Positions 3,996 to 59,547 of a DNA stretch of 64,000 bases are shown piece by piece. The DNA comes from Amphiscolops sp. MND2022. Lineage: Eukaryota. The notes under the pieces are model-generated. The model did no database searches and was not told where the DNA came from. It saw only the letters and a program-made list of their open reading frames with translations. Made by a program: the position numbers and the translations under genes. Each line of letters opens with the position of its first letter. The stretch's first letter is position 1. The stretch covers positions 6,636,001 through 6,700,000 of the forward strand of contig OZ076409.1 of the NCBI GenBank assembly GCA_964187785.1, in the 5' to 3' direction.

Positions 3996-4789
3996 GTTCC
4001 AAAAAAATGAAATACATCAAAATTACATACTAACACATCATAATATACCTACACATCATAATACATCAAAATATTTGTAATTATCATAATTGCCCGATCA
4101 TAATTGCCATTATATACAAAAGAAAAGAATAGTTAAGTATTAAACAGTATTAAAATAAAGTAAACTAAAATTTATCACGATAATAATCTTGCAGTGATTG
4201 GCCGGAACGAAAAAATTATTAGGGTTATATTCCTGCAGATATCGGCTTCGGAACGAAGATTTTCGTCATTGCCAATTTTATTTGTCCCGCCTAAAATACT
4301 GGGAAAATAATAGTTGAGCTGATATTTCTTAGTCAAAAAAAATTAAGAATTTAATTTGATAACTAAATTAATTTTAACTGAATTAATTTGATAAACCAAA
4401 AACTGAACACTGAAAATCTGCATGTGTAGATATATATTGAGACACTTCCATGTCAAAGCAGTGTATTGAATTGGCCGAAGCGAGTGGCAGATCTATCTAA
4501 ATCTTGAAATTCTTTGAGCAAGCGATGGAATTACTTGCCCAATTTACTCTCATCAACGAGTATGCATGGGCAATTAAAGCCATCGCTCCTGCAAAGAAAC
4601 TCAATACGTAGCTTGTGCTTCCTCGGAAATCAATAGGCAACAGTTTTGGCTGCGAAACGAATGGGCATTTTTGGCCCATACATTCATTCATGTCCATCAT
4701 TTTCCGAGCCGCACAACGAGTAAAATCTGCATTTTCGTTGCCGGTTACCCCACTGTAATGTTATAACTTTGCTTTCTGATAATTTCTTG

Positions 4790-5366
4790 CACCACTCAGG
4801 CCTAGGGGTTTGCGCTAAGAGTGACAGTGGCTGAGAGCAGGAGTTCGTGAGTCCGAATCCCGGGATGGTTTTTTGATTTTCGCAAAAGTAAATGAGATCA
4901 TAACCCCTGTTTGGGTTTTCGGAGCTGTGCGACTTTTTTGGGAAACGTTTTCATTTGATCGAAAGGTACCTTCACTTTTTGAAGCGTTTCCGGTTTGGAA
5001 TAAAATTTTGCAAACCTGAAGGGTCTCCTATTGGGTATTTCGGCACCTTTTTAATGAATTTCTTTGTTTTCAGTTAGTTAAGGAACAAGTGTTTCTCGAG
5101 TTTCAAGGGTATGCTTTCGGGTAGTTTTGGGAATTTTGATATTTTTAGTCCCTTTGCAAATTTAAATAGCTATTGAACCTTGAGCGACGCGCCGACTTAC
5201 CGTATATTCCGGCGTATTTTTCCAAAATTTTGATTCTGAAAAAACAGTCTTCGTTTTATGTTCGTCGTATAAGCCCCCTCCCCAAACTTTTGACCACCAA
5301 AATTTCAAAAAAAAACGTGCTCATACGCCGGAATAAACGGTAGGCCATTACCAGCTTGACTTGTTC
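4790..5366 (+). mobile_element. Putative tRNA-derived SINE-like repeat (related copies near 28424-28630, 31513-31790, 34970-35370)
   Basis: A-box-like AGGCCTAGGGG and B-box-like GTCCGAATCC in the head. The body (CGG..CTGTGCGACTTTT, GGGTC.CC) and the end GCGCCGAC....CTTGTT are shared with the other three loci. Confidence 0.45.
5200..5340. mobile_element. Tc1/mariner superfamily (pogo-like) MITE nested in the SINE-like repeat
   Basis: TA-CCGTATATTCCGGCGTAT ... ATACGCCGGAATAAACGG-TA: 18-bp TIRs with 1 mismatch and a TA duplication. Confidence 0.8.
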
Positions 5367-7083
5367 ATTGTAAAACAGCTGATAGACATTTGAACAAATG
5401 ATTCCGATGAAACTATTTTTAAAGAAATAATGGTCATAAATTATTAATTTTTCATCACGAAAATAATCGTTTATTCTCAGGTAGGGTTTAGGGAAAAAAT
5501 TTATTTCACATACCTAAAATAATTCATTATTTTGGCGCCTAATAACTTGGGCGGTGAAGTAGGTGGAAAGCAAATGAATATCTGTGGACGTTTATTTAGC
5601 CCTTCGGAGCTCAATCTTGGGTAATCAAGGCACACCGTCACACCAATGCACTGGGAGATATCGAGTTGTTCTTATCGGTGAACTGTGAATAAAAAATACT
5701 GCGATGCCGAATTGATTTCAATTTTTGTTTTTGAAAATGCTTTGGAATCTACCATTATTTCCATTGTTCATTTAAAAAACAGGGAAATAATCATTATTGT
5801 TATGGAGTCTCTGATGGGGTTGAAAGTTGAAACAGCAGTTACCAATGTTGGTACTGGTTTTGATGGAACGCTGATTCGTTCAACTTGGAATCGAGTTTGA
5901 ACCGCTTTTTTAGGCGAATCACGATCGGAGAAAAAATCACCGAAAGAGTTTGATACAGCACGTTTCGTGATTTTTTTTAGCATTGAAATGCCGGGTTTTT
6001 GCTAGTTAGGAAAACGTTTTAGAAAAAACTCGAAAAATATTCTTGGCGCTTCAGCCACCAAGGTTTTTCGAAAGATCATGCTAAGTAATCGCGAGGAGCT
6101 AGTGTTTGCTATAAAGAGTATAAACAAAGATCTGCCCTGTTTCTTTAAGGGCATGTAAACATTTTTCAGAAAAAAAGTCGCAATAAATATTGTATAGTGC
6201 AAAAACCCAAACGGGAAACTTCTGGCTTAACAATTGTGAACAAACAGAGTGAAATTATTGACAACCCAAAACTCCAAAGAATAATTTCTGAAAAACTACG
6301 TTTTCTCGAAAAAGGCAAAGTGACCATTCAAGCTCGCAAATCGTGTTGTCCTTGTTAAAAAGAAAGACGTTAAGGGTTGTACGCTTTGGAAAAACAGTTG
6401 CATACTGTGGAAATATTGTAAAGCTGGACATCCTAGCTGGTCGGTCATGTGTGAAATATTATTTGGGTTTCAGAAGTGAGTTTTGTACGAGTCGAAATCT
6501 AACCGACAGAAAAATTGCGAAATTGCTTTGATGGACAAAGTTTTTTTGCTAACTTTTTTCTCGTCTTGAACATTTTGAGCCAAAAGTTGTAAATGGTTGA
6601 ATTTTGAGCTGATAGTGGCCATTCGTAGTTTCCACATTTATCATCATTACAGTGCACAGGCAAGCTATTTTGCTGTTTTCGTGGAATCCGGGACACGAAA
6701 ATTGAGAAAAATCGTGGAATCCAGTACAAAATTTCTCTTTGATGTTAAGCGTGTCTTGGATTCCACGACAGTGCTTGTCTTGGATTCCACGCCAATACTG
6801 CTGCTATAATGACACTTTTGCCGCTGCTCTCTGATTGGTCCGCTGATCATTTTGAATTAATATGCGAAAAGTAGTGCATAATATTATGTTTGTTCAGTCT
6901 TCCACTTGAATTTAATTCAAGAAGAGATGCCGCGTTTCGCGTCAAGCATAAATTCGTGGAATCCAGGAAATTTATGATTTCTGCAATCTGATTGGTTCAT
7001 TTCGCAAAACTTACGTTTTTGTGGAATCCGGGACACCGCTGCATGCCGACAGTTCGTACAGCTAAGCATTTGTTACTGGAATC

Positions 7084-7351
7084 TGTACTGACCTACATTA
7101 ATAACCAATAGTATTTAGATGTTTATAGAATGTTCTAGAATGTACATTTATTTGTTATTGAATGATTGTAAATCTCTACTCCTTCAGAGAGAGAAAACTA
7201 ATAATCAGTATTCAGTTGACTTCCTTTTTGTTCTACTACTAACACCTCGGAATAGTTGTAATAAAGAAAGCTAGCTAGCCTGTCTCTCAGCCGCTTTTAG
7301 TAGTTGCGTATAAGACCATCAAAACAATAACCAACCATTAAAAGCAGCACA
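7084..7351 (+). repeat. 5' LTR (268 bp)
   Basis: TGTACTGACC...GCAGCACA. It matches 25228-25495 except at 2 substitutions and contains AATAAA (7260). Confidence 0.97.
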
Positions 7352-7354
7352 ATT

Positions 7355-7368
7355 TGGTGCGACTTGTA
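7355..7368 (+). promoter_or_regulatory. Putative primer-binding site
   Basis: TGGTGCGACTTG starts 3 nt after the 5' LTR. The priming tRNA was not identified. Confidence 0.6.
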
Positions 7369-7637
7369 AAATTTTTCTTTTGCCTTTTCTCCTGGATGAT
7401 TTCTCTTCTCTCAACAATCATACAAATACCACTCTCCATATTTGAAATTCTCTGGAATTGCAGTGAAATCTTTCTAGAATTTCTTGAAAGTTTGGTCTGT
7501 GACTTTCTAAATTTCATCAATAAATACATCATCGTTCGAAACACAATTTCTCCACTACAACAATCAACTTTACTATAACAAATTTTCTTCACTACCGGTT
7601 TATCACGTTTTCCAATACGTTGAAACGGTTTCATTTC

Positions 7638-7864
7638 GGACTGATTTATCCATTGTGACACAGTTCTGTTTTTCTTCTTTTTCCAGACTGATTTATCCAA
7701 AGTGACACAGTTCTGTTCTATATACTGATTTATCACAGCTAATCCGGAAGCTTGTTGAAACAGTTCTTTGATGTTTGTCTGGTTTATCAAGGTTTTCTAA
7801 CACCTTTGACACAGCAACATTTGTCTGGTTTATCAAGGTTTTCTAACACCTTTGACACAGCAAC
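7638..7864. repeat. Tandem repeats in the retroelement leader
   Basis: Two exact 45-bp copies (7774-7818, 7820-7864), plus three related ACTGATTTATC units at 7638-7738, the first two followed by GTGACACAGTTCTGTT. Confidence 0.9.
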
Positions 7865-9102
7865 TTTCTTCAATCCTGCTATCTTGAACGTCAGGTGGAC
7901 TCCTGGTGTAATAGTTGACTGAGTGCATGTCCAACTCCGCTCACCTATAAGCACATACGTCTCAAGATCAACTTCGTGTTGGCAGAAAACCTGGATTTTC
8001 TACTTTTACGCTTCGGATCCCCTTTTTATAAAATTTCCTACCAAAAAATTTCAGAAATAGACTCTGAAAACAAAAAAAAGGCAACCAAGACTAACTACCA
8101 AAAACAACCACGCACTATTCCCTTTCATTCCCTATTGTCGACAAACAATACAAATAAATTCAAAAACTTAAATAATACAAGTAACTTCAAAAAGTTTTCA
8201 ATAACCAACAAAAATAACAATATCAAATAAACTCAAACTTACCTCGAGTACTTCCAATAATAATAATTTTAACATAATCCTACAAAACAATTATTTTAAC
8301 AAAATACCACATACAATTTTCACAACTCTTTTGCTTTAAAACTTAAAATAAGGCATGTAAATAACACAAACACAGTAAAGTTAGTTTTCTACTTTCAGGC
8401 ACCCACAATTCCTATCCCCTCCCGTAAGACTTAGCCAATCAGACAGCCTCACCAGCTTACTCTGATTCTAAGACTGACTAAAAACCTTAGTTAAGTGTAA
8501 ACGTCTTTAAGGAGAATCGAGAGGACACCGAACTACGTTCGAATCTTCAAAATTCTCTGGAAGTAAAAGTAAAAATAAAAGAAACAAAGATCAAACTTTG
8601 ATCGTGATCAGTATTGATCTGACTTTGGATGGTGGACGTTGATTGTTCAGAGTTCCACTCCCTTAGTCTTAAAACACACAACCCACTTAAAATTAAAACA
8701 ATCTTAGTTTTTTCTGGACGTGTCAGTAACCTTATGTTAGACACCTTAAAGTGATCCAGACTTGAAATAACATTTAGTTTCTGTTAGCAATCTTTTGAGG
8801 TTGAATACAGATCCTACTGCACCCGCTTATTTCTTCTCTATCCTAAACCATTAACTTCTCAAATAACTTCAAATTACAATACAACTTATATGAACCCAAA
8901 CCAAGAAATTTATCCTTTCAACTTTTACATTCCACCAATAAGCTCTTTTCAAAACCCTACACCAAACGATTTTGAAAGATTAATTGAACGATATCAACGA
9001 TATTTCTTCTTTATCATAAATCAACAAAGAAATTACCCAAGAGCTCGAACTTAGAAAATGTTTATATAAGACATTTCAACGTTATAACCTTCACATTATA
9101 AC

Positions 9103-9216
9103 ATGTGGGAAAAGGTTACCACAGTAGTACTCATGACAACATACACGTTTTGTGTCTTATTTATAGTTTGTGTTCTTTTTGAAAAAATACTTACGGTGAT
9201 AAGAGACAAACTTTAA
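9103..9216 (+). CDS. 37-aa hydrophobic upstream ORF (possible single-pass peptide)
   Basis: MWEKVTTVVLMTTYTFCVLFIVCVLFEKILTVIRDKL*. The stop lies 2 nt before the gag ATG. Confidence 0.35.
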   Translation: MWEKVTTVVLMTTYTFCVLFIVCVLFEKILTVIRDKL

Positions 9217-9218
9217 AA

Positions 9219-12200
9219 ATGACCACAACAACATTTTTACCTTTTCACACTCCCATCATTAAAAATGCAAAAGTTGTAAAATTAGAACTAAACCTATTTC
9301 TACAAAACATTATTTCACATTATACACAACCACTCCCATTTGAAAATGAACCACACACAATTGAAACAATCCCTCGTATTAGAGAACATTTGGACACATA
9401 CCTTTTCTATATTAGATACAAAGTTTTAACAATCACCGAAGAATACCCAACTTTTCAAATATCCTTTCCTCAACAAAGACTTAATTCATCTCATATATAC
9501 AGAAGAACAATAAACCCAATAAACCTTCAAGTTCCTATTAAACAAGTTTTTCATGCTTTTCTAAATAATGTAAAAGATCACAATTTAGCACACGAAATTC
9601 CAAAATATAGTCCAAATGCACTCGACGATCTTCAACGATACATAGACAATTTCGATGTAGAAATTATTGAAACATTGGTTAATCCTGAAGACAACCCTCA
9701 TCATTGGTTACAAGCTGATATATTACGAATTCAAAATTTCATCTACCATTACTTCAAAGACCTAACATTAAATGACCAAACAATTCCTCAGATCAAAGTA
9801 ACATCTTTATTTCTCAGAAAATACTTCAGATTTAATTATCAACTATTATGGTCTCAACAAGATCAATCTGCTTTTACAGCATTTCCAGATCATTTTACAT
9901 TAGAAGAATGTTTACCATTCATCATCAGTGAACAAAATGAACACCCTTACTTTCATAAACCACAATTACTTACAAAACAAACCTTAGATTACATACGTTT
10001 CGATCCTCTATTAATTACAGAAAATGATCTATTCGCAGATAATAGACCATACCACTATCAACAAAATTCTCAAGATCAACAAAATTTACATTTTAACACT
10101 AACAATTCTACTGAATATGATAACACCGATCAGGAAAACTCAACCCAACAACAAAGTCAACCTGAAAACTATAACGATAATGAGTTTACTACCCAAGAAT
10201 CTACAATCTCAACACATAATCCATCACAAACAGGGACATCAACATCAGTACATACTCACTCCTTTAGAGTTCCCACTAGAGTTGTAAATCAAAGACAAAA
10301 TATACATAGTCCTCAATCTCATTTAGATACATCTCCAAACCGTAATATAACTTTTAACCTTCCACATACAGATGACATACACGATGAAACCCATGATACA
10401 TTACAATATGATACTATCACTACATCTAGTGCTCAGAATACTTCTGCTAATGTTGCATCTCCAACAAGAACTACCTCTGATTCTACAAGATACATTACTC
10501 GACCTAGATATGATCCTCCATCAATCCCCTCCGCCTTTCGCTCAAACAGATCGACCACTTCTAGCAACAATTTTAATGATAATCCTCAAACTTCCAACCG
10601 ATATTACGATCCATTTAATTATAACTTTCATCCTCCATCAAATACAACTAACAATACAAATACCAACCAACACCACTCTCAAATTAATACAATTTCAACA
10701 ACACAAAACCCTTTCATACAATTATCAAATACCAATACGTCCCAGAATATATATTCTCAAAATCAAGGAACCTCGTATACTTCCACTTCTTATTCTAATA
10801 TTACACAGGATTTTCAAAGAAGACTTCATAATCCTCCACGTACACATATCCCAACTGATCCTCTGTATCGAACGCATCCAAATCCAAATCTTAACCCTAA
10901 TCCTAACCCATTACCACCAAATACAATCCAACATATACCTCCACCACTCACACAACAATTCACTTCTTCACCCCAATATCTACCAATGCCACAAGATACC
11001 TTTATAAACATGTCCGCTTCAATACCAGAACCTATGAAACCTTTTGATGGTTTGGACCATTCTTACACCCCCGAAGAATATCTACAACAAGTCGAAGCAA
11101 GATTAACCTTCGCCATAGGTGAAGAACCTCAAAATAATCCTATAAAATACAAATCTTGGCATAATAGACGCATGGCTTACATACAATGTTCATTAATAGG
11201 AACAGCTCTCGCATGGTACACTAACCTCCATATATCATATAAGCAACAATGGAATTCCTTTGTACAACTATTCAAAAAACAATTCTCATCTCAAAAAACT
11301 GCTTACTACGCTCAAGTAGAAGCTATGTCACTCATGAAAAAGGATAATGAAACAGTTCGCCACTTCGCCCTTAGAGTACAACAATTAGTTAAAAAGGGAT
11401 GGTGTAATGAAAATGCAGCTACCATAAATCTCAAAAATAATGAAATCTTTACAAAAGGGTTACCAAAGAAGTTAAAAGATTTTGCCCATAAACGACAAGT
11501 TAAACATGTATCAACATTACTTGAACCTTCAATACCATTTCATACACTTGTTAGACATGTCGATTCTGAAGATATTGCTAATGAAAAAATTAGAACTAAC
11601 GACTTAGCCCTAGAAATAAACAAAGTATCGCTTGAAGATGATACTAACAAAAAAGAATTTGAACATGAAGATCAGATAATGATTACTCAAACTGGAGACC
11701 CAAATAACAAAAGCAAACCAGCGTATAGAAAATATTGTTCCTATTGTCATAAAAATAATCATAGTATTTCAAATTGTTATCAAAAACAACGTGATGACGA
11801 ATACCAGAAATACAATAACCAAAGATCACGAACTCCTCAACAATCCTTTGTACAATATTTTCGCAGTAAACCTAATAATCCTCAGGAAAATCGAAATGAC
11901 AATACAAACTCTTACTCCTCAGATAATGATCGTAATAAAAATAATCAAAACTACTATAATGATAGATACAGAAACAATGATAGATATCGTAGCAATAGTA
12001 GAGAATTTTCGCAAAACAACTATAGATCAAACTCTCGACAAAGATATTATAATCGATCCCGAAGTCCGTATAGATCTCGATTTGATAATTATTATCAAAG
12101 AAGAACTCCATCTAGATCTCCATATAGATCTCCATACAGAAATAACTCAAATTACAGATATAATTCTCGCTCAAGATACAGATCTCGTTCTCAATCACAA

Positions 12201-15200
12201 GGAAACTCCTTTAAACGATATAATTATCCATATAGATCTCCATCAAGACCTAGAGATTTTAGATCAAGATCTAGAACACTCTCAAGAAACAGACAACAAA
12301 ACAGAATAAATCAAGTAGACGTTAAATCTCCAAAAGAAAATGATAGTACAAAATTTGAAATCCACACCTGTCAAATGACTGAAATAGCTAATACAATCAC
12401 CCCTTATAGTTGGTTTTATCCACTATATATTCACGCTTCTGAAACAAATGACAACATATTACCTTCAAAATTAGAAATCTTATTCCTTTTAGATACTGGA
12501 GCTTCCATATCTGTTTTGAATTTACCAACATTTCATGTAATTTCCAAACAATTAAACATCAATGTTCCAACCAACCTCCAAAACAAAAGAGCCAAAACTC
12601 TTACAGTTGCAAACCAAACTGAAGTACCAATAATACATTATATTTCGATGACCTGTTTCACTGAAGTAAATCACAAAACACGATCCTTCAATATCGATTT
12701 TGCCGTAGCAAATATCAAATACAACATTCTTGGAACACCCTTTTTCAAAAAGCACATCCAAAATATTGATTTTCAACAAAACATTATGACGTACACAGAA
12801 CAACATCCAAAGCTTTCAACAAAAACTACATTTTCCACATTTACAGAAAAAGATTACCCATATATTTCTTACATTTATACTATTAAATGTAAGGAACCAA
12901 TTCACTTTAAACCAAGGTCAGGAAAAACCATACATTTTCCAATTAAAAACTATTCAAATCTACATTTTGAACTCGAAGATAATACGAAATTCTACCCAAC
13001 AAACCCATATACATATTTCTTACAAAAATTTAAAAATATCTTTCATTTCTTAGATATGATAGTCAATGAAAAAAGCAAAGACTCATGTGCAACCATAATT
13101 CAAAACTTTACATCTTACCCAGCTACATTACCACGAGGAATTATTGGATATATAGAAATACCTATTACGCAAACAACTCCTCCTCACTACAGAGTTACCG
13201 ATGTAAATTCACTTATTCACTCTGTAATACATGCATATCACCCTGATACCACAACCCCGATTAAACAAAATCCATATACAGATATGAACTTATGTACTAG
13301 GGTAATACCACAATCCCTATTAGAAAGAAACAAGATAGAAATTAACGACAAAACACTTCAACTTCCTATACCTTCTGTTACTGGAAACCTTCGACCTTCA
13401 GATAAATTTCGAAAAGATTTCCCTCCATTACCCTATTCTACAGAAAACCAACAATTCATAAAGAAGTTCAATTTCGAATACTCAGTTTTAACCGATACAG
13501 AATATGTAAATCTCTGCAATATTCTAATTATTAACCAAAATTGTTACGCTAAACATAAAAACGACGTAGGAAAGATTTCTACTCCCTTTCGAATTAGAAT
13601 AAAAGATAATTGTAAACTTCACACACAAAGACCTTCTAAAGTACCTATCCACTATAGAGATAGACTAAATAAACTTTCACTAGAACTCGAAAAATACAAC
13701 ATCATAAAACAAATTGGTTCGACAACAGATGAAAAACATACTATTGGAACAACATTTTTAAACCCTTTAATTATTATCCCAAAAGGAGACGCAATAAAAG
13801 TTGTTTTAGACGCAAGACATTTAAACTCAAACACTAACCAAGAACTTGAATCTTGGCCTATTGAACCTTTAGCTCCTCAATTAGCTAGAGCTAATAAAAA
13901 ATACAAATCAACTATTGATCTAATGTATGCATATGCTCATACACCATTAGATGAAGAAACAATTAAACTTACAGGATTTTCATCCGGTGACAAATTATAC
14001 GCCTTTATCCGTGGATTTTACGGATTAAAAGGACTTCCAAACTTTTTCACAAAACAAATGTCAACTTTCTTTAGATCACTTATAGACAAACGTTCTGCGT
14101 TAGTTTATATAGATGATATTTTATTACTCGCGAATGAAAAACAAGAAATGTTTGAACTTATAAAAGAATTACATACAATAGCATCTCGAGAAAATCTCAA
14201 ACTTGCACCTGAAAAATCGTTCTACATGTTACTCAAAGTAAAATTCCTTGGACATGAAATTGGTAACAACACAATTAAACCAATTCCATCCAAAATTGAA
14301 GCTATTAAAAGACTACCATCCCCAGAAGAAAAGAAAGATGTTATGCAATTTCTTGGCAGTGTTAACTTTTATTCAAAATTCATTGAAAAACTTCATATAA
14401 ACCTTAAACCATTGTATACATTACTACACGATGATGTTAAATTTCAATGGACACCTGAATTAGAAAAACTATTTCAAAATGTTAAAAACGCAATGACAGC
14501 AGACATTGAATTAACAATACCCAACACCACGCATCCATTTTTCATAACAGTAGATGCTTCGTTAGTAGGTTTAGGCGCAGTCTTATTCCAAATGAACGAA
14601 GAAAATAAGATGAAAGTAATCTCTTATAACTCCAGAATTCTCAATACACAAGAACAAAAACTTTCAACTTTAGACAGAGAACTTTTTGCAATAGTTTACG
14701 CATTACAAATATATGAATTTTTGATCATTGGATCTCCTCATCCTATATATCTCTTCACAGATCACAAGCCTTTACTACATTGTTTCGCAAAGAAAGGAAA
14801 TCTTAGTCCTAGATTCTATAGAGCACAAATGCAACTAACCAAATTCTCCAAATTAAAAATCATTCATACCCCTGGAAAAAATTTAACTGTAGCAGATATG
14901 CTTTCAAGAACCTTTACAAAAGAACAGCTACAAGTACACCAATTACGACATAAACAATTACCACCTCAAATAGATTTCTCTATCATGAAAGATAATCAAC
15001 TCAAACCAGTACATTATTTAGTAAAACATGAAGAAATAAAATATAATCAAAAGAATGATTGTCATCCTATCCTTGCTGACTACGGAGACGACCAATTCTC
15101 CATCCGTATAAATAACACAGGAGAAGATATACATATAAAGCCTTTAGATTCCTTCTCTTTTCAATCTATTGTTCCATTCGAATCAAAATATAAAAAGCCT

Positions 15201-17251
15201 ACAAATAAACAAGCAAAATCTCTTTTACAACAATCGACAATTCTTATTGATACTGACAATCTTGGTGATGAAGATGAAATAACACCATCAAATAATATCC
15301 AACAACAAAACTCGAACATAGTAAAAGAATACACCCTTGCTATACAATATCCTACCAAATCTGACTATTGTAAACAACAAGTTCCATTTTTGATCCATCC
15401 TTTTTCAAATACAAAAAATATTTTAATTACTTCTTCCTACCAGAAGATACACAAATAACCATTGAAACAATAAAAGCTCAACAAAATCAAGATACTGTTT
15501 TACAAAAGGTTTACCAATGGATACTTTATAATGAAAGACCCTTACAAATAGACCCAACAATTGCAGCTAACTCTTTCTTATTAGTATATTACAAACTCTT
15601 CAACCAATTATATTTTAATCATGATACAAAAATTATCCACATAGATTATCCTAATCTTCACGATTCCAACCCGAATCAAAGAGACAAAATATGTCTACCA
15701 TTTAAACTTTTCCACACAGCTTTTAACAAACTTCATGCTCATGGACATTCAGGAATAAAAATATCCATCAAAGCTTTCAACCAATTTTACTTCATACCGT
15801 ACCTGAATAAATGGATGTCAATATTCATCCATGATTGCATTGAATGCCAACAAAATAAACATATTAACCAAAAATTACAAACTGCATCTATACAAACCTT
15901 CTCAGAAATTGCTTCATATTTTAATTACCGAATATCAATGGATACAAAAGGACCTATAAACCCACCATCAGATCAAAATTCGTACATTCACGTTATAGTA
16001 GACGCTTTTAGTCACTTTGTAGTAACAGTACCTATGAAACAAAATAATGCTCAAAACGCTGTTAACTCATTACTACATCATTGGATAACAAAATTTGGAC
16101 CTCCTGTATACCTAGTTACCGACCGTGGAACAGAATATATTAATTCAGAATTTGCAAATCTTTGTACCACAATGGGAATTAGACATTCACCAAGAACTCC
16201 TTATGCACCATGGACAAATGGTTTAGTTGAAAATCAAAACAGAAATCTTGGAACTCATCTCAGACTTTTCTTACATAACACTCCAGAAAATTGGTCAACT
16301 CAAGTCCATATGTATGCTTATGCACATAATTCACAACCACTTTCTGAATTAAACTTATCTCCATATGAAATAGTATTCCATACTATACCCAGAATTCCAA
16401 TCAACTTTGAACTCAATCTCCAAAGAGATACATATAGAAATTGTTCTTCTCAATATTGTCAAGAATTACCACTTCATACACACTATGACAAATCAAATCT
16501 AAACCCTTTCTTTCATAAAATTTTATCTAAACCAATTCCACAATGGATCTTGGCTACTGAAACTGCTTTGATACAGATATACCATACGGTATATGAAAAC
16601 ACAAAAAGAAAGATTAATTCCTATGCTTATTTTAACAAAACATATCACAATCCAAGACCCTTAGATATTGGTAAATTTGTACTAAAAAGAAATTTTCTCC
16701 ATGTTCATTTTTCCGATAAATTAAAACCTCTCAGAATTGGCCCATTCAAAATTATTAACAAACTCTCCGATATAACATATGAAATTGTTAATCAAGATGG
16801 TTATACATCGCACATACATAGAAATCATTTAATTCCTTTTCATCCAAAAGAACCAGTTATTTTCCCTTTCATACAACAATATAACCCTCATTTATTTAAT
16901 GACTGTCATTCAAATACAAACGATCAAATAATTAACTCTGATGAAGACAAATTTACAGACGAAGAACAATTTCCTTCCACAACATTTAATAAAGAAACGG
17001 ATATACCATCCACGATTGACTTACAACCAGAACCATTTAACCAATATTCTTCATTTCCATCTAAACAAAAAGAACAAATTCCTCAAAATACCTCCATGGA
17101 TAACCAATCAGATATTCATGATTATGATAATTTTATTAATCCCCGAAGGCACTCCTATAATAGATACAATTTCCGCCCACAACCAAGAAAAGACTACCGA
17201 CTCTTCCTTGGTGAAAAGGATATAATTTCACTTTCTCAAAAATCCTGCTAA
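9219..17251 (+). CDS. Gag-Pol polyprotein (about 2680 aa) with a single frameshift near 15387-15391
   Basis: Capsid-like region from PMKPFDG; zinc knuckle CSYCHKNNHSISNC (11736); protease LLDTGAS (12492) and ILG; RT YIDD (14106); RNase H TVDAS (14553); integrase HAHGH..CIEC, D-D-E (MDTKGP, TDRG, GLVE) and GPF motif. The second frame is open from 15392 to 17251. Confidence 0.95.
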
Positions 17252-17420
17252 AATACGGAATACAGAAAGAAATACACACAAAGAAAGTTTGAAAGAAAGA
17301 AAAAGTTTGAAGCTTAATGCGAAAATAAATGAAATTTATTTCACGAATGAGAATAAAAGAAAGAAATCTTAATTGATATAAAACTATAACTATTTTACAA
17401 GCTGAAACTAACTATCATAA

Positions 17421-18890
17421 CACAACGATTTCAAAATTGATAGACATATTCACTCACCATCATCAACTACAAATAATTCTTCTTCTAGTTCAACACATTC
17501 ACTCCAAAGATTACCTGAATATACAGCATATTTAAACTCAGATACAGACATACTGGATTCCTCATCCTCAAATCCCAGTCCATCCGCTCCATATACTCCT
17601 GATAGAGTACCAATAACACCCACTAATACACATATAACCCAAACTCAACCACTAATATTAACAACTCAATCACAACCTATTTCACGAAATCTAACATTTT
17701 TAGAAACAAATTCACCACTTTCTGACTCTAATGATGAAACACCTACAATACCAAATACACAAGATACTTCAGATATTTTGAATAGACCTCCTCTTCCACC
17801 GATTACTACCACTCGTTCTATTCATATCCCTGATCCTAGCTCAGTCCTACAATACATAAATTCTTGTCCACACAAAGTACCAACTGCAACAAAAACAAAA
17901 AGAAAAACTCCTTTACCTACATTACCACAAAATCTTGATTTACCATCATCAAGTAATATCCCAATAACATTTTTACCAGAACCTTTATTGAAATCACCAA
18001 CGAAAAAATCACAACAATACCCAACTCCTTCACCATCGGAACTAAGTTCCTTCACATTTTCTCAAATATATCCCAAGCTTGAATTACAACGTGTACATTC
18101 AACAACTACCTCTTCATTAACAGATTTATATCATAAAGATAAAGACTCTGACTCAACTGCTAGTACTAGAGTACCAAGACATAATTAAAACCTTCGATCT
18201 CAACAACAAAGAGATTCTCAAGAATTACAATCCTTAACTAGTTCAAGTACAAACTCAAGACTACTTCGACAACACGCCCAACCCAGATTGGACACTTCTT
18301 CTCTTTCCTCATCTCAGCCCACTATACCATCTTCTCTATCACTACCATTTCAAATCACATCAGGATTTGAAACAGCCTCTCTTCTTTCTGAAGAGCCAGC
18401 AACTATATCAGATAGCGCAGCTAATTTTTCACGAGTTTACTCACCTAGTTCAATAGCATCAAACTCTTCTATACAATTACCTGAATATTTTTTAGAAGAA
18501 TTCTCAAGACCTCCATCGCCAAATCCTCACGAATATCCTATTCGTGTTAACTCAAAAATTGTTCACACGCTTGACGAAGATCCTCGATACACGGTATTAC
18601 CTGCAAGATTTATAAACAATAGTTCACTCTCAACTCAAAGAAAACAAAGAGAACTACGAAGATTACAAGAACAACAACACACATTAAAATTTGAAGTAGA
18701 AGTCACATTCAACTCGTTAGGACCTCATCCATTCTCACTTTCAACAAGAGTAGCACATAAAACAACCCCATCACCATTCATTGTTACCTCCATTTCCTAC
18801 CTTTGTGACGCAGATTTACCTGAGATTAGAACAGGACATATAAACTTTTTTAATCCCTACTCAGGACTCAATTATGGATCAATATTTTAA
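17421..18890 (+). CDS. Accessory Ser/Thr/Pro-rich ORF between integrase and env, with one internal TAA (18186)
   Basis: ORFs 17778-18188 and 18288-18890 share a frame that is open from 17421 apart from one stop. It has no ATG and a more ordered C-terminal segment of about 100 aa. Confidence 0.6.
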
Positions 18891-18892
18891 CC

Positions 18893-21532
18893 ATGAACCA
18901 AATCACCTTTACCTTTTATTTAATATATATAATACAAGTTGTTAAATACACGTATATAATAAATATAGTTCACTCTTTAGTTCACCCTTCAACTGTTCCC
19001 AAAGTTGACACCACCAATTCCGAAAATCATATTTCAGACCAAGATCCTAACATTTTAAACTTAATGGTATCTCATTATGATTGTGCAAAACAAAATAACT
19101 TAAGACAATTCAGTTTATTAAATGTAGAACCATGTAAACAAGCACCCTCAGATATACAACACACAAAAACCCAAGCAACAGTTTATGTTAGAGCAAAAGC
19201 CAAAAGAATAAAAGCCTTTAAATGTGAAGCATATATAAAGACTGAGAATGTCTGGTGTTCACAAACATTCACATCTAGTAGACGATATGATCGTTTACAA
19301 TGGGGACAAAACACATTAGAACTTCCAAAAATATTGGACCCTATTGAATGCAAAAATATGATCAGATATTTAAACGCGACTGATAGCGAAGAATTAAACA
19401 ACTACAATATACAAAGCTCTTTCTCATTGTTCGACGATAGTAATTATCAAAACACAATTGAACGAATTCAGACACCATTTAGAGTAAAAAAATCAAATAC
19501 ATGGCATATTGGAACCTTCGTATTTGACGAAAATTATCCTGATTGGATAGTTAATGTTACACAAAATACATACTCTAGATGTCGATCAGACCGCGAACAT
19601 TTAATTACCCGACAAAGTTGGAAACTTAGAATTGTTAACACCGCAATAGATTATGACGATAAAAACAATCAATTATTACATGACGGACACATATTACCAT
19701 GTTATCATTCAGACGGATTTTGTAAACCAACGACCAAAACTCCATATACATTAACATGGTTTGATGAAAAATTTTGCCTCATATTTCAACTTCAAGAATT
19801 CATTGGTAGAATGACACGAATCAAAGATAGATATTGGATGGAAACCGATACCTTCATTGAAACTTCAAACATCACACAAAAACTTCAAACCGAAGGAATA
19901 CAAGGAACAAAATACCCTAATATAAAAACACCACAATCAAAAGTAAGCAATCCAAGCCTTTCTCGATTTGAAATATACCCAATTGCACAAACCTTCTGTG
20001 GAAAACCTGAACCATTACTTTCAACACAATATGATGACATCTTTGTTACATACTTAGATGGTTTTGATATGAATACAGGATTACCAAAACCACACTCAAT
20101 AATTGACCAAACAATTAGTGGAAATATAAAACATGATGATTCAAACAAATGGTATATATTCCCTGCATTGAATATATCAAACAATTTCGCCACTTTAGAC
20201 TATGATGCCCACATTAATACAAAGATTGATTTCACAATAAATCATGTATTTAAATCCATGACAGTACAAGAACTAAACACTCTTCATACAATATGTGAAC
20301 TAAAAAGAACTCAACTGTTAACAATACTAGCAATGTCAGTTAAAAATCCTCAATTAGCCGGTTTTCTTTTAACTGGAAATCGTAGTAACTGTCTCTACGT
20401 TGAAGGATCTACAGCATGGCTGTATGATTGCCCTCATTTTATATCACCACTATACAAGGCAGATAAAAGCTTTGATAGAATTCCTATACACTACAGAGAA
20501 ACGATAATGTATGTTGACCCAATAACAAGACAAACTTTTAACTACGCAACACCAATTGAATGTGGAAATAACCCACAAAATATAATAGAATTAGATCCAG
20601 ATTCCAACGACGGAGATTTTTATGTGTTAACACCAGAACCACTCAAACGAGAAGCACCACAAATGTTTAAACCTACCCAAATTAAAACAACAATCACTCC
20701 TAATACATTTACCGCCCAAGATGCCGGTATATACTCAAATGCAGAATTAGATCATTTCTGGAATAGAGTATTATTTGCTAAACATTCAGACACAACTCTT
20801 CAATTACTTGGAAAATCATTAAGCTATGATTTCATTTCAATGCATAATGAAAAACACTCATACTCAGGACATAATCCCTATAATCATTCAGGGATTGGAG
20901 TACATGACCACTTGTTGAATCTTTTACCACTTTTTAACCCTGACTGGTTCAGTCAAGCATTCATTAATTTCTTTGGATACCCATGTTATGTCTTAACCCA
21001 ATGTGGAGTTTATTTTTCAACATTCCTTTTCATTAGAGAAGTTTTAACATTTTTACTCAAATTCTACAGAACAATTAGCCAAAAATATAATCTCGAAAGC
21101 AACATTTCCATTTTGAGTTCAATAGCCCATGGATTTTTTAATATAGTTACATCGGAAATGGTAACCGATTTAAATAATACAGGAAAACGAAAACGGATAT
21201 ATACTAAACACAAAATTACAACAAGTGAAAATGATAATATCCTATTGCCGGAAAAAGAATTAAACAATAAACGAAGACACTCTGATACTGACTCCCCTCA
21301 CTTACCTCCTAAATATTCCAGTAAGAATTCAACATTTCAATCACCGCAAAAGACACACCCAACTAATGTAAACGATATTAATTCTCAGGACTATGACCCA
21401 ATAATGTCAAATGTAATAGTGGTACCGGAAAGTCCTGCTAAAGTCTTTATAAAATTTAATCCCTCCTTACTGAAAAGCAATAATTTAGAAAACAAATTAA
21501 CCTCAGAAAAAATTCACAAAATTATCAACTAA
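18893..21532 (+). CDS. env: Envelope glycoprotein, 879 aa, resembling chuvirus-type/class III fusion proteins
   Basis: N-terminal hydrophobic signal; Cys-rich ectodomain (HYDC..FSLLNVEPC..AFKC..VWC..ECK; ICELKRTQLLTILAM..NPQLAGFLLTG; YVDPITR..PIEC); N-glycosylation sequons (NAT, NVT, NIT, NIS); C-terminal TM segment and cytoplasmic tail. Confidence 0.88.
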   Translation: MNQITFTFYLIYIIQVVKYTYIINIVHSLVHPSTVPKVDTTNSENHISDQDPNILNLMVSHYDCAKQNNLRQFSLLNVEPCKQAPSDIQHTKTQATVYVRAKAKRIKAFKCEAYIKTENVWCSQTFTSSRRYDRLQWGQNTLELPKILDPIECKNMIRYLNATDSEELNNYNIQSSFSLFDDSNYQNTIERIQTPFRVKKSNTWHIGTFVFDENYPDWIVNVTQNTYSRCRSDREHLITRQSWKLRIVNTAIDYDDKNNQLLHDGHILPCYHSDGFCKPTTKTPYTLTWFDEKFCLIFQLQEFIGRMTRIKDRYWMETDTFIETSNITQKLQTEGIQGTKYPNIKTPQSKVSNPSLSRFEIYPIAQTFCGKPEPLLSTQYDDIFVTYLDGFDMNTGLPKPHSIIDQTISGNIKHDDSNKWYIFPALNISNNFATLDYDAHINTKIDFTINHVFKSMTVQELNTLHTICELKRTQLLTILAMSVKNPQLAGFLLTGNRSNCLYVEGSTAWLYDCPHFISPLYKADKSFDRIPIHYRETIMYVDPITRQTFNYATPIECGNNPQNIIELDPDSNDGDFYVLTPEPLKREAPQMFKPTQIKTTITPNTFTAQDAGIYSNAELDHFWNRVLFAKHSDTTLQLLGKSLSYDFISMHNEKHSYSGHNPYNHSGIGVHDHLLNLLPLFNPDWFSQAFINFFGYPCYVLTQCGVYFSTFLFIREVLTFLLKFYRTISQKYNLESNISILSSIAHGFFNIVTSEMVTDLNNTGKRKRIYTKHKITTSENDNILLPEKELNNKRRHSDTDSPHLPPKYSSKNSTFQSPQKTHPTNVNDINSQDYDPIMSNVIVVPESPAKVFIKFNPSLLKSNNLENKLTSEKIHKIIN

Positions 21533-21884
21533 ATTCTTCTCAGTTTTAACTTTCATTCACACCCAAATTCTCACTCGGACCGGTCTCTCTTTTTCAACTC
21601 AACTCAACTCTCAACCAGAAGACTTCAACTGGATTTTCAGTCCATCTAAACGACCGAAATCACAGAAATTTCTATTCCTGGAATAGATGCCACTGTGATT
21701 GTTGATGTTTTCAACCCATCATTGACCCAGTATTCCCATATTGTAAGTACAATTTAAACTTTAATTTTAACAAACAATTTAATGGATAGAAAAGACATAA
21801 CAAAATTTTTCCTTAAAATTAGAAATAATGTAATCAAATGTTATATTATTATTTTAGCTCTACAAAAACACGCAAGTTTAAATA

Positions 21885-22587
21885 ATGGAAACCTTGCCCG
21901 AAATTGATGTAGTTAACTCTAATCCCTCTGAATTGCTTGCAACCCCTTTGAATATAACTATTCAACAAAATGTTAACGAAGATAATAACTCTTCCTCCAA
22001 CTCTCAAGACCCTATAGAAAATATCCCTATTGAACAAGTAGATCATGTTAACACAAGATCTCAAAAAAAAGTACCCAGATATAACCGCAGATAAACCTTT
22101 TATGGAATCTGGCGCTTGCCCTCCTTTCATAAAACCAATCAAACAAGATGAAGATAGAGATTGTGAATTAGTTCCTATTCTCTCGTCAAAACAATTCACA
22201 TTTTAATCTCAGTTAACCTCGTTATACATGATTCCTTCAAAATACAAATTCATCATCAGAGAATTTAAAAATGATTATCATACATCAATTGATTCAAAAT
22301 TGATTACCCCATATGATTGGTAGTTAAACAATAAAGTGAAAATTTTCTCACTTCAATACAACTTCCTCGGACCATCTCCATATGATCTTCGAACAGAAGA
22401 AAATGATGCAAATTTTTTGCCTTACCAAATCAAAAAGGCCCACCATATGACTTATCAAAAGATTCTTCAATATAAAGAGCCCGATAATTATATATTCTTC
22501 AACTCCAAATATACATCGCCATTCACTTTCAACTCAGAATATTTAATAGATCATACCAAAAACAAAAGGAAAACTTCGAAACTATGA
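21885..22587 (+). pseudogene. Disrupted accessory ORF 3' of env
   Basis: ORFs 21885-22094 and 22336-22587 have the element's codon style and are linked by coding-like sequence with stops and frameshifts. Confidence 0.4.
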
Positions 22588-22629
22588 CCCGCTGAAACAA
22601 AGTTTTCTCTTCCTTCCAAATGATAACCC

Positions 22630-23176
22630 AAAAAGACCAATCATTGTACCACAAGAATACCTCATTTTAAACGACGATTCGTTACTACAAGAAGATATAC
22701 CTCAACATATATCTGATCCTCTTCCTCCACTTCAACATATAGCCTCTCAACCATTGCGAGACTGTGAAAAGTCTTATTTTCACGCAATGATCAAAAAGGG
22801 ATATTCAAATAATGAATTAATTTTCATTACTTCCCACCTGCTTTCACTTCTTACAAATAGAAATCACAAAGAATATAAAAAGGCAAAACAAGAATCGCCT
22901 AAGAAAACCAAAAATGATATTCCTCAACCACAAAGTTTTCGCCCAACAGATGAATTACAGAAATATACAGAAATCCTGAATATCATAAAACCGTATCATC
23001 ATCCAAACCGAGATATTCTTATAACAATCGCTGAAATCGTAAATACCCTTGAACAAGCTCGAAGCATAACACAAAACATCGTATTTGATACGACAAGAAT
23101 TAGCCAATCAGCTTTGTGCATTCGCACATCCTTAGACGAATTCAACTACACTATTGAAAAAATGCATCGATCTTAA
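22630..23176 (+). CDS. Accessory ORF 3' of env, function unknown
   Basis: The frame is open upstream of 22754 (KRPIIVPQEY...). The C-terminus looks helical/coiled-coil. Confidence 0.45.
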
Positions 23177-23583
23177 CTGGTAATTATGGGATAATAGCTT
23201 TAAAGTTGTTAACACTTATCACTTAATCTCTTAACAACCTGTCAAAATTAATTGAGTCTACACGCATATGCCTGCTATGCATGATTATAATACATGCTTG
23301 ATGTTAAAATACACTTTTAAAATGAAATAACATAAAAATTTCAATCACAACATAAAAATTTTTCAACGATTTTTCTCAATTGCTCCTCCTTTTAATGGAC
23401 CAATTTCGACAAATAAATACTTATATGAAAGATATTAAAATACCCTTTAAAAGACTTCCAAAATACAACAACTTAATTCTTAAAATTAAAAAGTTATAAC
23501 ATCACAAAATTCAATAAAAAAATGTCAACTACGAAATTCTATTTTCAAAGGAACTTTATTGTAAACAAACTAATCAATTTTAG

Positions 23584-24176
23584 GTGAATATCGTCACAAC
23601 TGCTTCTTCAGCATTCCTTCCTCCTCTCAGGCCACCCATTCAAGAAGAATTCCGAAGTATCTTCTACAGCTTTCAACGAAATTTTCTCATTTCTTCACTA
23701 TGACAACTATTCACTCTGGCGACATTGACTGCCCGATAGCTCCATTTCTTTCAATCTCTTCAGCTCGATTGCGATCCTTGATCCTGAAAAAGCATTTAAC
23801 GACATTAAATGCGCAGCTTCGAACAGACAAAAAGGCAGACCCACATCTTACAAGGATGATATTGCTTAATATGTTCCAAATATTCCAAATAACCAGAATA
23901 AATTTCGACCAATATCTCCATATTCATAAACATCCCGACACTTATTCAACCCAACGAGACGCCACTACCCAAACAGAACATACTACCATCAAACCCAAGC
24001 GTTTAGTACGAACTCTATCCAATAGAATGCGTTCCGAAATGGAAAAACAACGTTTAAATTCTTATTGGCCCTCAGATGACAATAATGACACTGACGAAGA
24101 CCTTCAAAAAGATCCCCCAGAAGCACTTTTAGACGATAACTATCCGCACAAAACATATACTTACGTTTCCTTCTAA
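23584..24176 (+). CDS. Accessory ORF/exon 3' of env, function unknown
   Basis: 158-aa ATG ORF at 23700. Its frame is open back to a splice-acceptor-like CTAATCAATTTTAG|G at 23583. The C-terminus is acidic. Confidence 0.5.
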
Positions 24177-25213
24177 TATCAACAGACGCCACCAACAGCA
24201 CCCGTCTACTCCCATCTTCGAATTCCACATCTTCAACGAGCAACAGATCAGCACCCATCTTCAACTTCATCGCCGCCCAACAGTTGCCCATCTTCATTCA
24301 TCTGCTGACCCTTCTTCATCCATCTTCCAATCTTCAATCGTCACCCACATGCTCAGCCAAAGATGATCAATAATTAATAATAAAGAAAACTCAAAGAAAA
24401 ACATTGTGCATGATAACATTTCGAAAAGTTTCAAACTCATCTAATATTTCATAGAATTCAAACTCTCACCTAAATTATTCATTATGTACTTAATATTTCA
24501 AATTTCATCCCCACCCACATTTATTTGCCCAAAATCTTTTATTCACACCTGTACCGATATTTATTTGCTTTATTTTTAAAGAATAATTAGTAATAATTAT
24601 TATTTTTTGGTGCTATCTTACCCAACAAAAAATTCACAAATACTATCAACAAATCTTTTCAAATTTCAACAAAACCAGCTCAAAATCAGATCAAGCATAT
24701 TTTTCAGATCACACTCGAATAATGACAGACCCAAATTCTCAAAGTTTTCAACGTTTGTTACATAACAAACCCGCCAAAGTTAATTACAACCTGAAATCTT
24801 TTCAAACGAATTTCACGTTCGATAAAAATTTTTTCTCAACAATATTATTTCTTTGACTCTTTGACCTCTAACTCGTATTATAATTGCTCACGTTTGTTCA
24901 ATGCGAAGTTCATCCAAAACTTCAACAGAAGCATAAAATTGAGCATCTACCAGTTCAAAAAACAAGCCGACGAAAGCATAGTGAAAAAGAACACTTTGAC
25001 GTTTTTGAACTGTAGTCGCACCTACGAGGTGTCAATCAAAATTTTGACAATTCGAGGTACACCAATGAGTCGAACTTACACCACTTTTCACGAGACTTAT
25101 GCCAATCATCCATCAAATGAAAAATGTTAACTAGCTGAAACGCTAAGAACATTTAAACAAAAAATTTTTCTTCATTTCAATTAATGATGCTACTTTAAAA
25201 TATTATTTTATTT

Positions 25214-25227
25214 AAAACCGGGATGGA
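25214..25227 (+). promoter_or_regulatory. Polypurine tract
   Basis: AAAACCGGGATGGA directly abuts the 3' LTR. Confidence 0.6.
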
Positions 25228-25495
25228 TGTACTGACCTACATTAATAACCAATAGTATTTAGATGTTTATAGAATGTTCTAGAATGTACATTTATTTGTT
25301 ATTGAATGATTGTAAATCTCTACTCCTTCAGAGAGAGAAAACTAATAATCAGTATTCAGTTGACTTCCTTTTTGTTCTACTACTAACACCTCGGAATAGT
25401 TGTAATAAAGAAAGCTAGCTAGCCTGTCTCTCAGCCGCTTTTAGTAGATGCGTATTAGACCATCAAAACAATAACCAACCATTAAAAGCAGCACA
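25228..25495 (+). repeat. 3' LTR (268 bp)
   Basis: Direct repeat of 7084-7351. Confidence 0.97.
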
Positions 25496-27659
25496 AAGCC
25501 ACGACTAAATCCGTGGAATCCGGGACAAATGACGTAATTTGCCAATTTTGCAAGGTTAAAGGTATGGTCGTGGAATCCGAGATATTGAAAGCACTGTTGC
25601 GCTTTGAGCAAATAAGGCTTGCCTGTGCACTCTAATGGTGGCACACTTTTGAAACAGATATGTTTGTAAACTAGATAAAAATCAAGAATTTTCAGTTTCG
25701 GGTATTTTCCAAAAATATTTGATTTTGGAATTTATCTTTTGTTGCTTCCTCTAAAATCAATACTTTCTTTTTTCAAGTTTTTCAAAGCACCCTAGTCGAG
25801 ACTGTTGGAATTTTTAACATGCTGTAAGCATGCATGCAGGGTTACATTTCATAAAATCTAGAATTTTCGGTATGAGTCTGGTGGTATATCTTGAAAGATT
25901 ACACCGTAGTTTACTCTATTGCAATTAAAATTAATATTTTTCACTATGTCGTCGACACCGCCACGTAGTGTTCATACTTTGTGCTGCCAACTACTCGTTT
26001 GAGATAATCACCGCTTCTCCATTAGCACACTCAACATATTAAATTGCAGCTCACAACATGACGGAAGTTAATTTGCATTAAAAGGGTGGTGAAACTGATA
26101 GTAACTTGGTTGCGTTCAAATTTGAACTGTTTTTCAAGGAAACGTGCAAAACTGCAAGCTCATAACTTATGACCTTGCAGTTTTGCACGTTTCCTTGAAA
26201 AACAGCACGTTTCCTTGAAAATTTGAAATTGCCGCCAAACCTAATGTTCTTGTTTGCAGCTTGACATTTGCATTTCAAGCAGCTTGATAAAAACCGAGTA
26301 CAGCAGGGAATTCTTTTTGCGTAAAAGATTCCGTAAGAGTTTTAGAAAATCATAATGAAAATTTGACAAGTTCAAAGTTCATGCGAAGCATTCAAGTAAT
26401 TGCAAGAAGGGCAGGCAAACTCATACAAGTAGATACCAAAAAGCTAAAGACAGTCGTCGGTTTAGGTAACGAAAACTTTTACAGCGCGAAATCTTTTTTA
26501 AATATAGTCGTTATACAAAAAAATCTCAGAAGCAAAAGTCACTCAAAGTTGAATGAGCAATACGAGGATATTTTTTGTTTTGAAATCAAAGAAAAAAGTT
26601 TTATCACATATCATATATTGAGGCTTTCGGTAATTTTTGCACTTTATTCAGCAATCACTCAGAAACTACTAGTCAGAATAAAAACCTCCGAATTTTTTTA
26701 TGGCTATGACACCGTTCTTTAACTTTCGTTATTAAGAGTCATTCTGAAATTGCTTCTTAAAAACTGAATAGCGAAAAACACTTGTAATTGTTTCAAATCA
26801 ATCTTTTACAGAGTGAAAATTGACGGTATCGTATTTTGTGATCATGTTGCGGTACAAAGAGACCCGAAAGTACAAAGTTTGTCTCAAACGCTTTTTGTTA
26901 AGAACAGCTGTTCTCGAGTTATTTATTGCATTATGAATTTCAAAAAGTTGGAAACTAGCGTTAAAAAAGTTGAAATACCCCTGTAGTTTCAGATGGGTTT
27001 GCTCCAAAGATTTTTGAGGCTACTGATTACGTAGGCATTTCTTGCGCTTTGAGATTTGAAATCAGGTGCCTTAAGTTTTTTGTGACCTTAGTGTAGCAAT
27101 CTACTTTTCGAGGACACAAACTTGTTCGATTCAACCAATCAAAACGGATTCATCTGAAACCAAACACAGGCACATATGCTTCACAAACATTGCTTGGCAA
27201 ATAACTATGACTCTAGGCTATATCTTCAAATCATAAAGACACAAGTTCGTTTAGTTGAGTCAACGTCGCTTCGGGTTTTGTACATTCTTCGTTCAACTCT
27301 AACTGATGTAATTCTGACATGAAACTTCTCAACAAACGCCTGAAACTCCAAAGTTTCAATGTCTGTTGAAAGCCTCGTGAAGTGTTAATTTTTGAAGAAA
27401 GTGACCGAAAAAGAAAACCTTGAAACTTTTAAAAAATGACAGGGAACAAAGTTTAGTCTCAGTTTACACAAACTTTCTAAAAGATGTAATTGAATGTAAT
27501 TCAGGGCAAGATATCTTTGATTTCTTCATTTCGAATCAATAGGTTCAATTGAGGAGGTTTCTATGGAATTCATCAGTTTTTGCACTTCTTTTAACTTTAA
27601 CAAGAACTACTTGATAGCGTGCGTAATCACTGGGGGTTGCTTAACCATCATTCCTTTAA

Positions 27660-42268: not shown

Positions 42269-42503
42269 AAACAACTTTCAGACAAAACTAATCTCTCATC
42301 TTTTCCTTACTGGTTTCATATTCCAAGTATTTTGTTGCTGCGATTACCAATAAGTACAAAGATAAATAAAACGCATGAGAAAAGAGACCACTTATGAACA
42401 AACAATTGAAAAACATAAAGTTTGGAGATTGGTTTGAGATCAAGCCTTCTTTTGCTTGCCACCTTTTTTTTTCACTCTGCTTGTCATCTTTTACTCCGCC
42501 GAC

Positions 42504-59530: not shown

Positions 59531-59547
59531 TTCCTTTGAGGATTCTC

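Follow-up and report, generated by a model that had tools for sequence, protein, structure and literature searches.

The stretch of DNA analysed here, referred to as the window, comprises 64,000 nucleotides (nt) of contig OZ076409.1 of Amphiscolops sp. MND2022 (assembly GCA_964187785.1, positions 6,636,001 to 6,700,000, forward strand), and all coordinates are counted from its first letter. It contains an 18.4-kb element bounded by long terminal repeats (LTRs), and this element encloses the open reading frame (ORF) which is the subject of our analysis: a frame of 879 amino acids (aa) running from ATG to stop at 18893..21532 (+), referred to as env. GAG, POL and ENV are found together in one multi-copy element, the parts of which are presented in Table 1. 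The env ORF is rich in A and poor in G (A 39.7%, G 12.6%). At the base frequencies of this stretch stop codons are expected at about 7.3% of random codons, and the chance of 879 stop-free codons is about 1e-29 (calculated by hand from the base frequencies); the env ORF is therefore not a chance frame.

Based on the protein sequence, env carries a YDC motif at residue 62, SLLNVEPC at 74, a C-x9-WC motif at residues 111-122, CELKR at 468, YVDPITR at 540 and PIEC at 554. There are 16 cysteines, of which 14 are located in the ectodomain, and nine N-x-S/T sequons, of which six precede the membrane helix. Hydropathy peaks at residues 4-27 and at about 704-724, and helices 2-29 and 696-733 of the AlphaFold2 model described below coincide with these hydrophobic segments. 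This arrangement fits a type I membrane glycoprotein, with a predicted N-terminal signal-like helix and a single predicted C-terminal anchor. A motif search of the 879-aa protein found no R-x-K/R-R site.

Concerning the family of env, the only Pfam family found on it is PF24664 (Monjiviricetes_fusion, ‘viral fusion glycoprotein’), which scores 80.3 bits where the cut-off is 27 (E 1.1e-22); Glycoprotein_B has no match. PF24664 also matches 34 of the 36 aligned env homologues. A word-indexed homologue search returned 63 proteins, all of them unnamed and 48-97% identical to env, 57 of which were already annotated with PF24664, and an exhaustive HMMER search returned 1,948 proteins at E<=0.001. 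The language-model neighbours of env in a protein atlas are the clusters of PF24664, Glycoprotein_B and rhabdovirus G.

A monomer model of env was built with AlphaFold2 from the 36-sequence alignment. Its mean predicted local distance difference test score (pLDDT) is 66.3, its predicted template modelling score (pTM) is 0.44, and 462 residues have a pLDDT >=70. The model contains a beta-rich fusion domain, a central helix of 45 residues (437-481) and a disordered cytoplasmic tail. Foldseek against the PDB gave 108 matches at E<=0.001; among the matches listed, the top rows are all herpesvirus glycoprotein B (gB), the best with an E of 2.8e-12 and a probability of 1.00. With VIA-align, env matches herpes gB at Z 11.3 over 417 residues, rabies G at Z 8.4 and Mokola G at Z 8.2, the last with a root-mean-square deviation (rmsd) of 4.0 over 121 residues. 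Among the viral models of BFVD, the first nine places are taken by chu-like, xinmo-like and qin-related virus glycoproteins (E 8.8e-30 to 4.4e-25), and the next best are rhabdo-like G and gB at about 1e-14. Sequence identity to the chu-like glycoproteins in these fold matches is 11-16%. In the fold searches of the PDB and of the viral models, the class III match has no rival among class I, class II or cellular folds. The modelled fold supports a class III fusogen (gB / rhabdovirus G / chuvirus G-like), with the chu-like glycoproteins as its nearest structural matches.

The pol domains identified with Pfam are arranged in the order protease (PR), reverse transcriptase (RT), RNase H (RH) and integrase (IN). 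The 2079-aa ORF which contains the first three has a long, low-complexity N-terminal part and a zinc knuckle, and its protease is marked by a DTG motif and weak aspartyl-protease matches. The best PDB sequence matches of RT-RH are to Ty3 RT, 4ol8 (E 3.5e-37) and 7q5b (E 6.9e-37), followed by the RTs of caulimovirus, foamy virus and gammaretroviruses. No BEL/Pao protease family is present among the Pfam families listed for the element. A Ty3/gypsy (Metaviridae) backbone is supported by these sequence comparisons.

An initial annotation of the locus had proposed a chuvirus-type, class III fusogen on a Ty3/Gypsy backbone, and had named class I or class II fusogens or non-viral proteins as the best structural matches that would speak against it. 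Both parts of the proposal agree with the results: PF24664 lies above its cut-off, the PDB folds are those of gB and rhabdovirus G and the viral models are chu-like, of the Jingchuvirales type, while the PR-RT-RH-IN order, the RT_RNaseH, rve and Tf2-type SH3 domains and the best match to Ty3 RT indicate the backbone. Foldseek, VIA and BFVD, all used with the monomer model, lead to class III. The ORF is very probably the env gene of an endogenous retrovirus-like Ty3/gypsy LTR element of the Metaviridae, of the kind described as errantiviruses that have an HSV/gB-type ENV (HSV, herpes simplex virus).

Table 1. Features of the LTR element that encloses env (window coordinates)
Feature	Position	Strand	Description
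5' LTR, TG...CA type	7084..7352	+	Direct repeat with 25228-25496, 269 nt, 2 mismatches
Putative primer-binding site	7355..7366	+	Begins with TGG, three bases past the 5' LTR
46-nt tandem repeat, 2 copies	7774..7864	+	Within the long 5' leader (7353-9218)
2079-aa ORF for gag-PR-RT-RNase H	9219..15458	+	Pfam Retrotrans_gag, RVT_1, RT_RNaseH, RT_RNaseH_2
Overlap of two frames with the RH-IN frame break	15374..15458	+	Break private to the window copy
Integrase: HHCC zinc finger, rve core, Tf2-type SH3	15374..17251	+	-1 frame relative to RT-RH
Spacer rich in purines, containing two very short upstream ORFs	17252..17420	+	From sequence and ATG positions
ORFx, Met-less accessory frame	17421..18890	+	One stop at 18186-18188; ends 2 nt before the env ATG
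env, predicted class III fusion glycoprotein	18893..21532	+	879 aa here, 858 aa in the rest of the family
ORFy remnant	21882..23176	+	430 aa in other copies; here in three frames, with at least 2 frame breaks
ORFz, 158 aa from ATG	23700..24176	+	Open frame 23574-24176
Polypurine-like tract	25214..25227	+	Abuts the 3' LTR
3' LTR	25228..25496	+	269-nt repeat of the 5' LTR

The host genome, searched as 1.07 Gb in 1,929 contigs, contains at least 40 matches to the whole length of env that are 98-100% identical, and the mean pairwise nucleotide divergence of the env copies is 1.45%; the family of the window copy is young and abundant. An open env of 858 codons is kept in 17 of the 29 other copies examined. 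The pairwise ratio of nonsynonymous to synonymous differences (pN/pS) in env is 0.49 when 25 copies are compared and 0.45 for the 17 copies of equal length, window copy included, whose first 858 codons are free of stops, which is moderate evidence for purifying selection during the spread of the family. A first look gave 3,742 env candidates, and 3,700-11,900 per query over the env queries used; candidates are not copy numbers. Elements with class III env may make up a large fraction of the 1.07-Gb genome. The mitochondrial COX1 of the host is read with the invertebrate code (ATA=M, AGR=S, AAA=K, TGA=W); going by how mitochondrial codes are distributed among animals, this indicates a protostome and speaks against vertebrates, tunicates, echinoderms, flatworms and cnidarians. 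Searches for the domains of arthropod cuticle (PF00379), nematode cuticle collagen (PF01484) and molluscan haemocyanin (PF14830) gave no match, but neither did their controls, so this is not evidence of absence.

Related families are present in the same genome. Family A, with an env 60% identical to that of the window, is represented by at least 50 matches that are 98-99% identical, and 49 of these contain no stop. A query with a distant homologue gave 61 genome matches which belong to several lineages, with open frames 726-952 codons long; of the 59 long matches, 52 are free of stops. Many distinct class III env lineages are found in the genome, each with tens of scored, mostly open copies. 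Looking at families A, B and C separately, the DNA upstream of env carries pol domains of the Ty3/gypsy type in all three, and the env that follows matches PF24664. Relative to the window copy, identity in env, RT-RH and IN is 60%, 69% and 57% for family A, 53%, 62% and 51% for family C, and 28%, 42% and 34% for family B. All three regions give one order of relatedness (A, C, B), the comparison being made by identity among four families of one genome. This parallel divergence of env, RT-RH and IN argues that env was linked to pol before the four families split. In family B, a single stop codon separates pol from env, which is in the same frame, and ORFx is absent; the architecture between pol and env thus differs among related families of one genome.

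Chary and Hayashi (preprint 2023, eLife 2026, PMC13524379) described 1,512 env-carrying Ty3/gypsy elements across animal phyla, of which 221 were typed ENV_HSV (gB type). According to PMC13524379, the gB-type env has a five-domain fold, fusion loops and lineage-specific cysteine bridges, and env and pol are argued to have co-diverged from a very old association. Two claims of the initial annotation do not stand beside this. It had spoken of an independent capture, whereas env, RT-RH and IN diverge in parallel over the four families and gB-type env in Ty3/gypsy elements is already published (PMC13524379); and the contrast which it drew, with chuvirus G only in Bel/Pao elements and F in errantiviruses, is out of date in view of the gB-type Ty3/gypsy elements of the same paper.

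The nearest viral structural neighbours of env are chu-like glycoproteins, ahead of gB, and its Pfam match is to Monjiviricetes only and not to Glycoprotein_B; identity to the chu-like glycoproteins is, however, just 11-16%, so no close exogenous donor is seen. Capture of a chuvirus-like glycoprotein is documented for mosquito BEL/Pao elements (cited in PMC13524379 and PMC10084718), whereas gB-type env occurs in Ty3/gypsy elements of many phyla, with env clades tracking pol clades (PMC13524379). In the genome studied here env and pol diverge together, down to 28% env identity, so env was in place before the families split. That a Ty3/Gypsy element captured the glycoprotein gene of a chuvirus (Jingchuvirales) separately and relatively recently, independently of the other known env acquisitions, is for these reasons unlikely. 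Far less probable still is that the ORF is a non-retroviral endogenous viral element (EVE), or a domesticated host gene, which lies inside or was trapped by the LTR element and has no role in its life cycle: EVEs of Jingchuvirales glycoproteins often adjoin Gypsy and Pao fragments, one study found no clear capture by Gypsy elements (both PMC10084718) and the other genes of the window element are broken, but env is located between pol and the 3' LTR in all four families, unlike a non-retroviral Jingchuvirales EVE, these diverged families, each with tens of near-identical copies, repeat the order pol, ORFx (where present) and env, ORFx ends 2 nt ahead of the env ATG, and a domesticated gene would be single-copy and syntenic, whereas at least 40-50 copies were scored here in addition to thousands of first-look candidates.

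Five other copies were compared with the window copy for pol, ORFx, ORFy and ORFz; they were chosen by a full-length env match, so the rates at which gag-pol and env are broken are not comparable. Near 15386 the window copy is one base shorter than all five, a single frame spans the RH-IN junction in four of them, and family A has one continuous RT-RH-IN ORF. A programmed -1 frameshift between RH and IN is ruled out by the one-base difference in length from all five copies together with the read-through in four of the five and in family A. Judged by this alignment, the RH-IN frame break is a lesion private to the window copy. A continuous RT and integrase ORF, by which PMC13524379 recognises intact elements, is lacking in the window copy and present in its family.

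The env of the window copy is altered as well. The initial annotation had described an intact type I protein of 879 aa with the motifs listed above. The ORF, all four sets of motifs and the topology are as it stated; ‘intact’ applies to the open frame only, as there are 14 private amino-acid changes. The length is right for the window copy and peculiar to it: the normal stop codon is missing here, while all of the 24 other copies of equal length end at codon 859. One of the private changes makes a new cysteine at residue 500, and through another, at residue 730, the membrane helix acquires a polar residue.

Several points weigh against the reading of the ORF as the class III env of a Ty3/gypsy element. 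Searches of PDB sequences with the single env protein and with the env profile gave nothing at E<=10, so the link of env to gB is visible only by fold. The template modelling (TM) scores to gB are low (0.13-0.31), the rmsd is high and a pTM of 0.44 is a middling model confidence; because the model is a monomer with low TM-scores and high rmsd, its domain arrangement is unreliable. Low TM-scores and a high rmsd are to be expected when a protein with several domains and two conformations is modelled as a monomer. Two aromatic-rich loops, at about residues 126-137 and 209-218, fall inside the alignment with the fusion domain of rhabdovirus G (model residues 103-294), which makes them candidate fusion loops; the suggestion comes from the aligned ranges, and residues 127-138 have a pLDDT <50. 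No target-site duplication is found, as the bases flanking the LTRs (7074-7083 and 25497-25515) differ; this bears on the history of the window copy and not on the family assignment. The pol, ORFx and ORFy of the window copy are all broken and the env stop is lost, one private change in env removes the cysteine at residue 526, which is invariant in 33 of 33 aligned homologues, and another alters the conserved central-helix motif at residue 471. The window copy is a decayed insertion and probably no longer functional. Finally, in a pN/pS of around 0.5 the effect of selection is mingled with that of neutral decay following insertion, and the value is no more than moderate evidence for constraint.

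With the ORF read as a class III env of a Ty3/gypsy element, the nearest known systems are the gB-type errantiviruses of PMC13524379. Common traits are the LTRs, the Ty3/gypsy pol, the cysteine-rich class III env, the GAG-POL-ENV order, the presence of multiple copies at >=98% identity, and a signal peptide and transmembrane segment; a furin site is not required in that group. The present element is 18.4 kb long, compared with regions of 11.6-16.4 kb among the available table rows of PMC13524379, and unlike the elements described there it carries the coding ORFx, of 1.64 kb, between IN and env, with two more ORFs after env. Its 12-mer primer-binding site has no match among the primer-binding-site entries in the available portion of the table of PMC13524379. 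Drosophila gypsy, ZAM and Idefix (Errantivirus) are likewise Ty3/gypsy elements in which the third ORF is a viral fusogen, with presumed cell-to-cell spread, but their env is of the baculovirus/paramyxovirus F type (class I; PMC13524379), whereas the env described here is class III. Herpesvirus gB, rhabdovirus G and the Jingchuvirales glycoproteins share with env the overall fold, the long central helix, the lack of an N-terminal fusion peptide and the C-terminal anchor; they differ in that identity is 8-16%, and in that env is carried by a reverse-transcribing element and not by a DNA or negative-strand RNA virus. Mosquito BEL/Pao elements that carry a Chuviridae-like glycoprotein, Anakin and its relatives, were reportedly described by Dezordi et al. 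in 2020. They too have a chuvirus-like class III glycoprotein as the env of an LTR retroelement, on a BEL/Pao backbone where the present one is Ty3/gypsy. The methods of PMC13524379 state that the mosquito BEL/Pao chuvirus-like glycoprotein is also found adjoining a gypsy POL. A class III fusogen as the env of Ty3/gypsy elements has already been published as widespread and ancient in animals, and the locus mainly adds one example.

The 1.64 kb between IN and env is filled by ORFx, which is an open frame of 484-489 codons in four of the five compared copies. Its C-terminal half is 44% identical to that of family A and 35% identical to that of family C, and in three families (window, A and C) it is without any Met codon. 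ORFx has no Pfam match, and its best PDB match reaches only E 0.28. The spacer 17252-18892 of the window contains 6 ATGs in all frames against 16.3 expected, and that of family A contains 4 against 12.5. In family C there is one ATG in 1.7 kb (12.3 expected over 5720-7500), and the 1,665 nt leading up to the env ATG are free of ATG. Other copies of the window family have no ATG in the last ~1.16 kb ahead of the env ATG, which is the first or nearly the first ATG after the Met-less ORFx spacer. The depletion of ATG in the ORFx spacer of three families suggests that env may be translated by leaky scanning from an RNA which also encodes ORFx. A comparable arrangement is known from rice tungro bacilliform virus, in which a long ORF without internal AUGs and with a non-AUG start precedes the AUG of the next gene and allows leaky scanning (PMC5902531). 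ORFx likewise lacks Met codons and lies upstream of the AUG of the next gene; the virus, however, is a plant pararetrovirus, and for the element the mechanism is only suggested by ATG depletion.

Downstream of env, the ORFy of other copies has 430 aa, is 42% identical to that of family A and has 304 unnamed homologues. Searches with ORFy gave nothing above the Pfam cut-off, no usable match in the Atlas and no PDB profile match below E 0.1, and an AlphaFold2 model built from 13 sequences has a pLDDT of 35.8. The ORFz frame of 200 codons is open in three of the five compared copies and has no match in Pfam, the PDB or the Atlas. Possibly new features are the three accessory ORFs, which are conserved, and the coding stretch without ATG that lies upstream of env; the available portions of PMC13524379 do not cover accessory ORFs or an ATG-free leader. 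In the search of that paper POL and ENV could lie no more than 1,000 nt apart, or the search was extended by 3,000 nt downstream, and given this limit on distance the families with ORFx may have been missed by its census. We put forward only tentatively, and with more doubt than belief, that the lineage is a ‘complex’ Ty3/gypsy endogenous retrovirus in which ORFx, ORFy and ORFz belong to no known family and env is made from a bicistronic RNA by leaky scanning, such elements being possibly missed by the published census and possibly forming a sizeable part of the 1.07-Gb genome.

Concerning the composition and surroundings of the element, its + strand (window 8000-25000) is extremely poor in G (G 10.9%, A 38.4%), with a GC skew of -0.25 to -0.40. 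Both LTR flanks carry copies of a short repeat (GTGGAATCCGGGAC-like); the element therefore sits in repetitive DNA. A second, decayed Ty3/gypsy element is present at 36500-42300 (+), where fragments of protease, RT, RNase H, the zinc-binding region and the integrase C-terminus are spread over several frames. The RT of this second element has 24% identity to that of the first, no env match is found within the second element, and at 38-42 kb it shows a milder skew of the same sign. The window also contains two endonuclease fragments of non-LTR retrotransposons (Exo_endo_phos_2) at 57761-62618 (-) and, near its start, an open frame of 322 codons with a SET domain at 757-1725 (+).

Based on the model and on analogy with gB, rhabdovirus G, Drosophila gypsy and ZAM, the following mode of action is proposed for env. 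Residues 1 to ~29 would form a signal-like hydrophobic helix, followed by the ectodomain (~30-695), a membrane-proximal helix, a transmembrane helix (~696-733) and a cytoplasmic tail. The protein would trimerise on particles made by Gag or on the cell surface, its two internal aromatic loops would insert in the target membrane, and its refolding would fuse the membranes. Through fusion of this kind the element would be able to move between cells, for instance out of the soma into the germline.

The genome holds a very large young radiation of such elements, in which several families have tens of near-identical scored copies whose env frames are mostly open. This makes it a good natural system for asking whether a class III env keeps retroelements infectious outside insects. 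Should RNA data confirm them, the accessory ORFs and the leader without ATG would indicate an expression complexity like that of retroviruses in an invertebrate Ty3/gypsy lineage.

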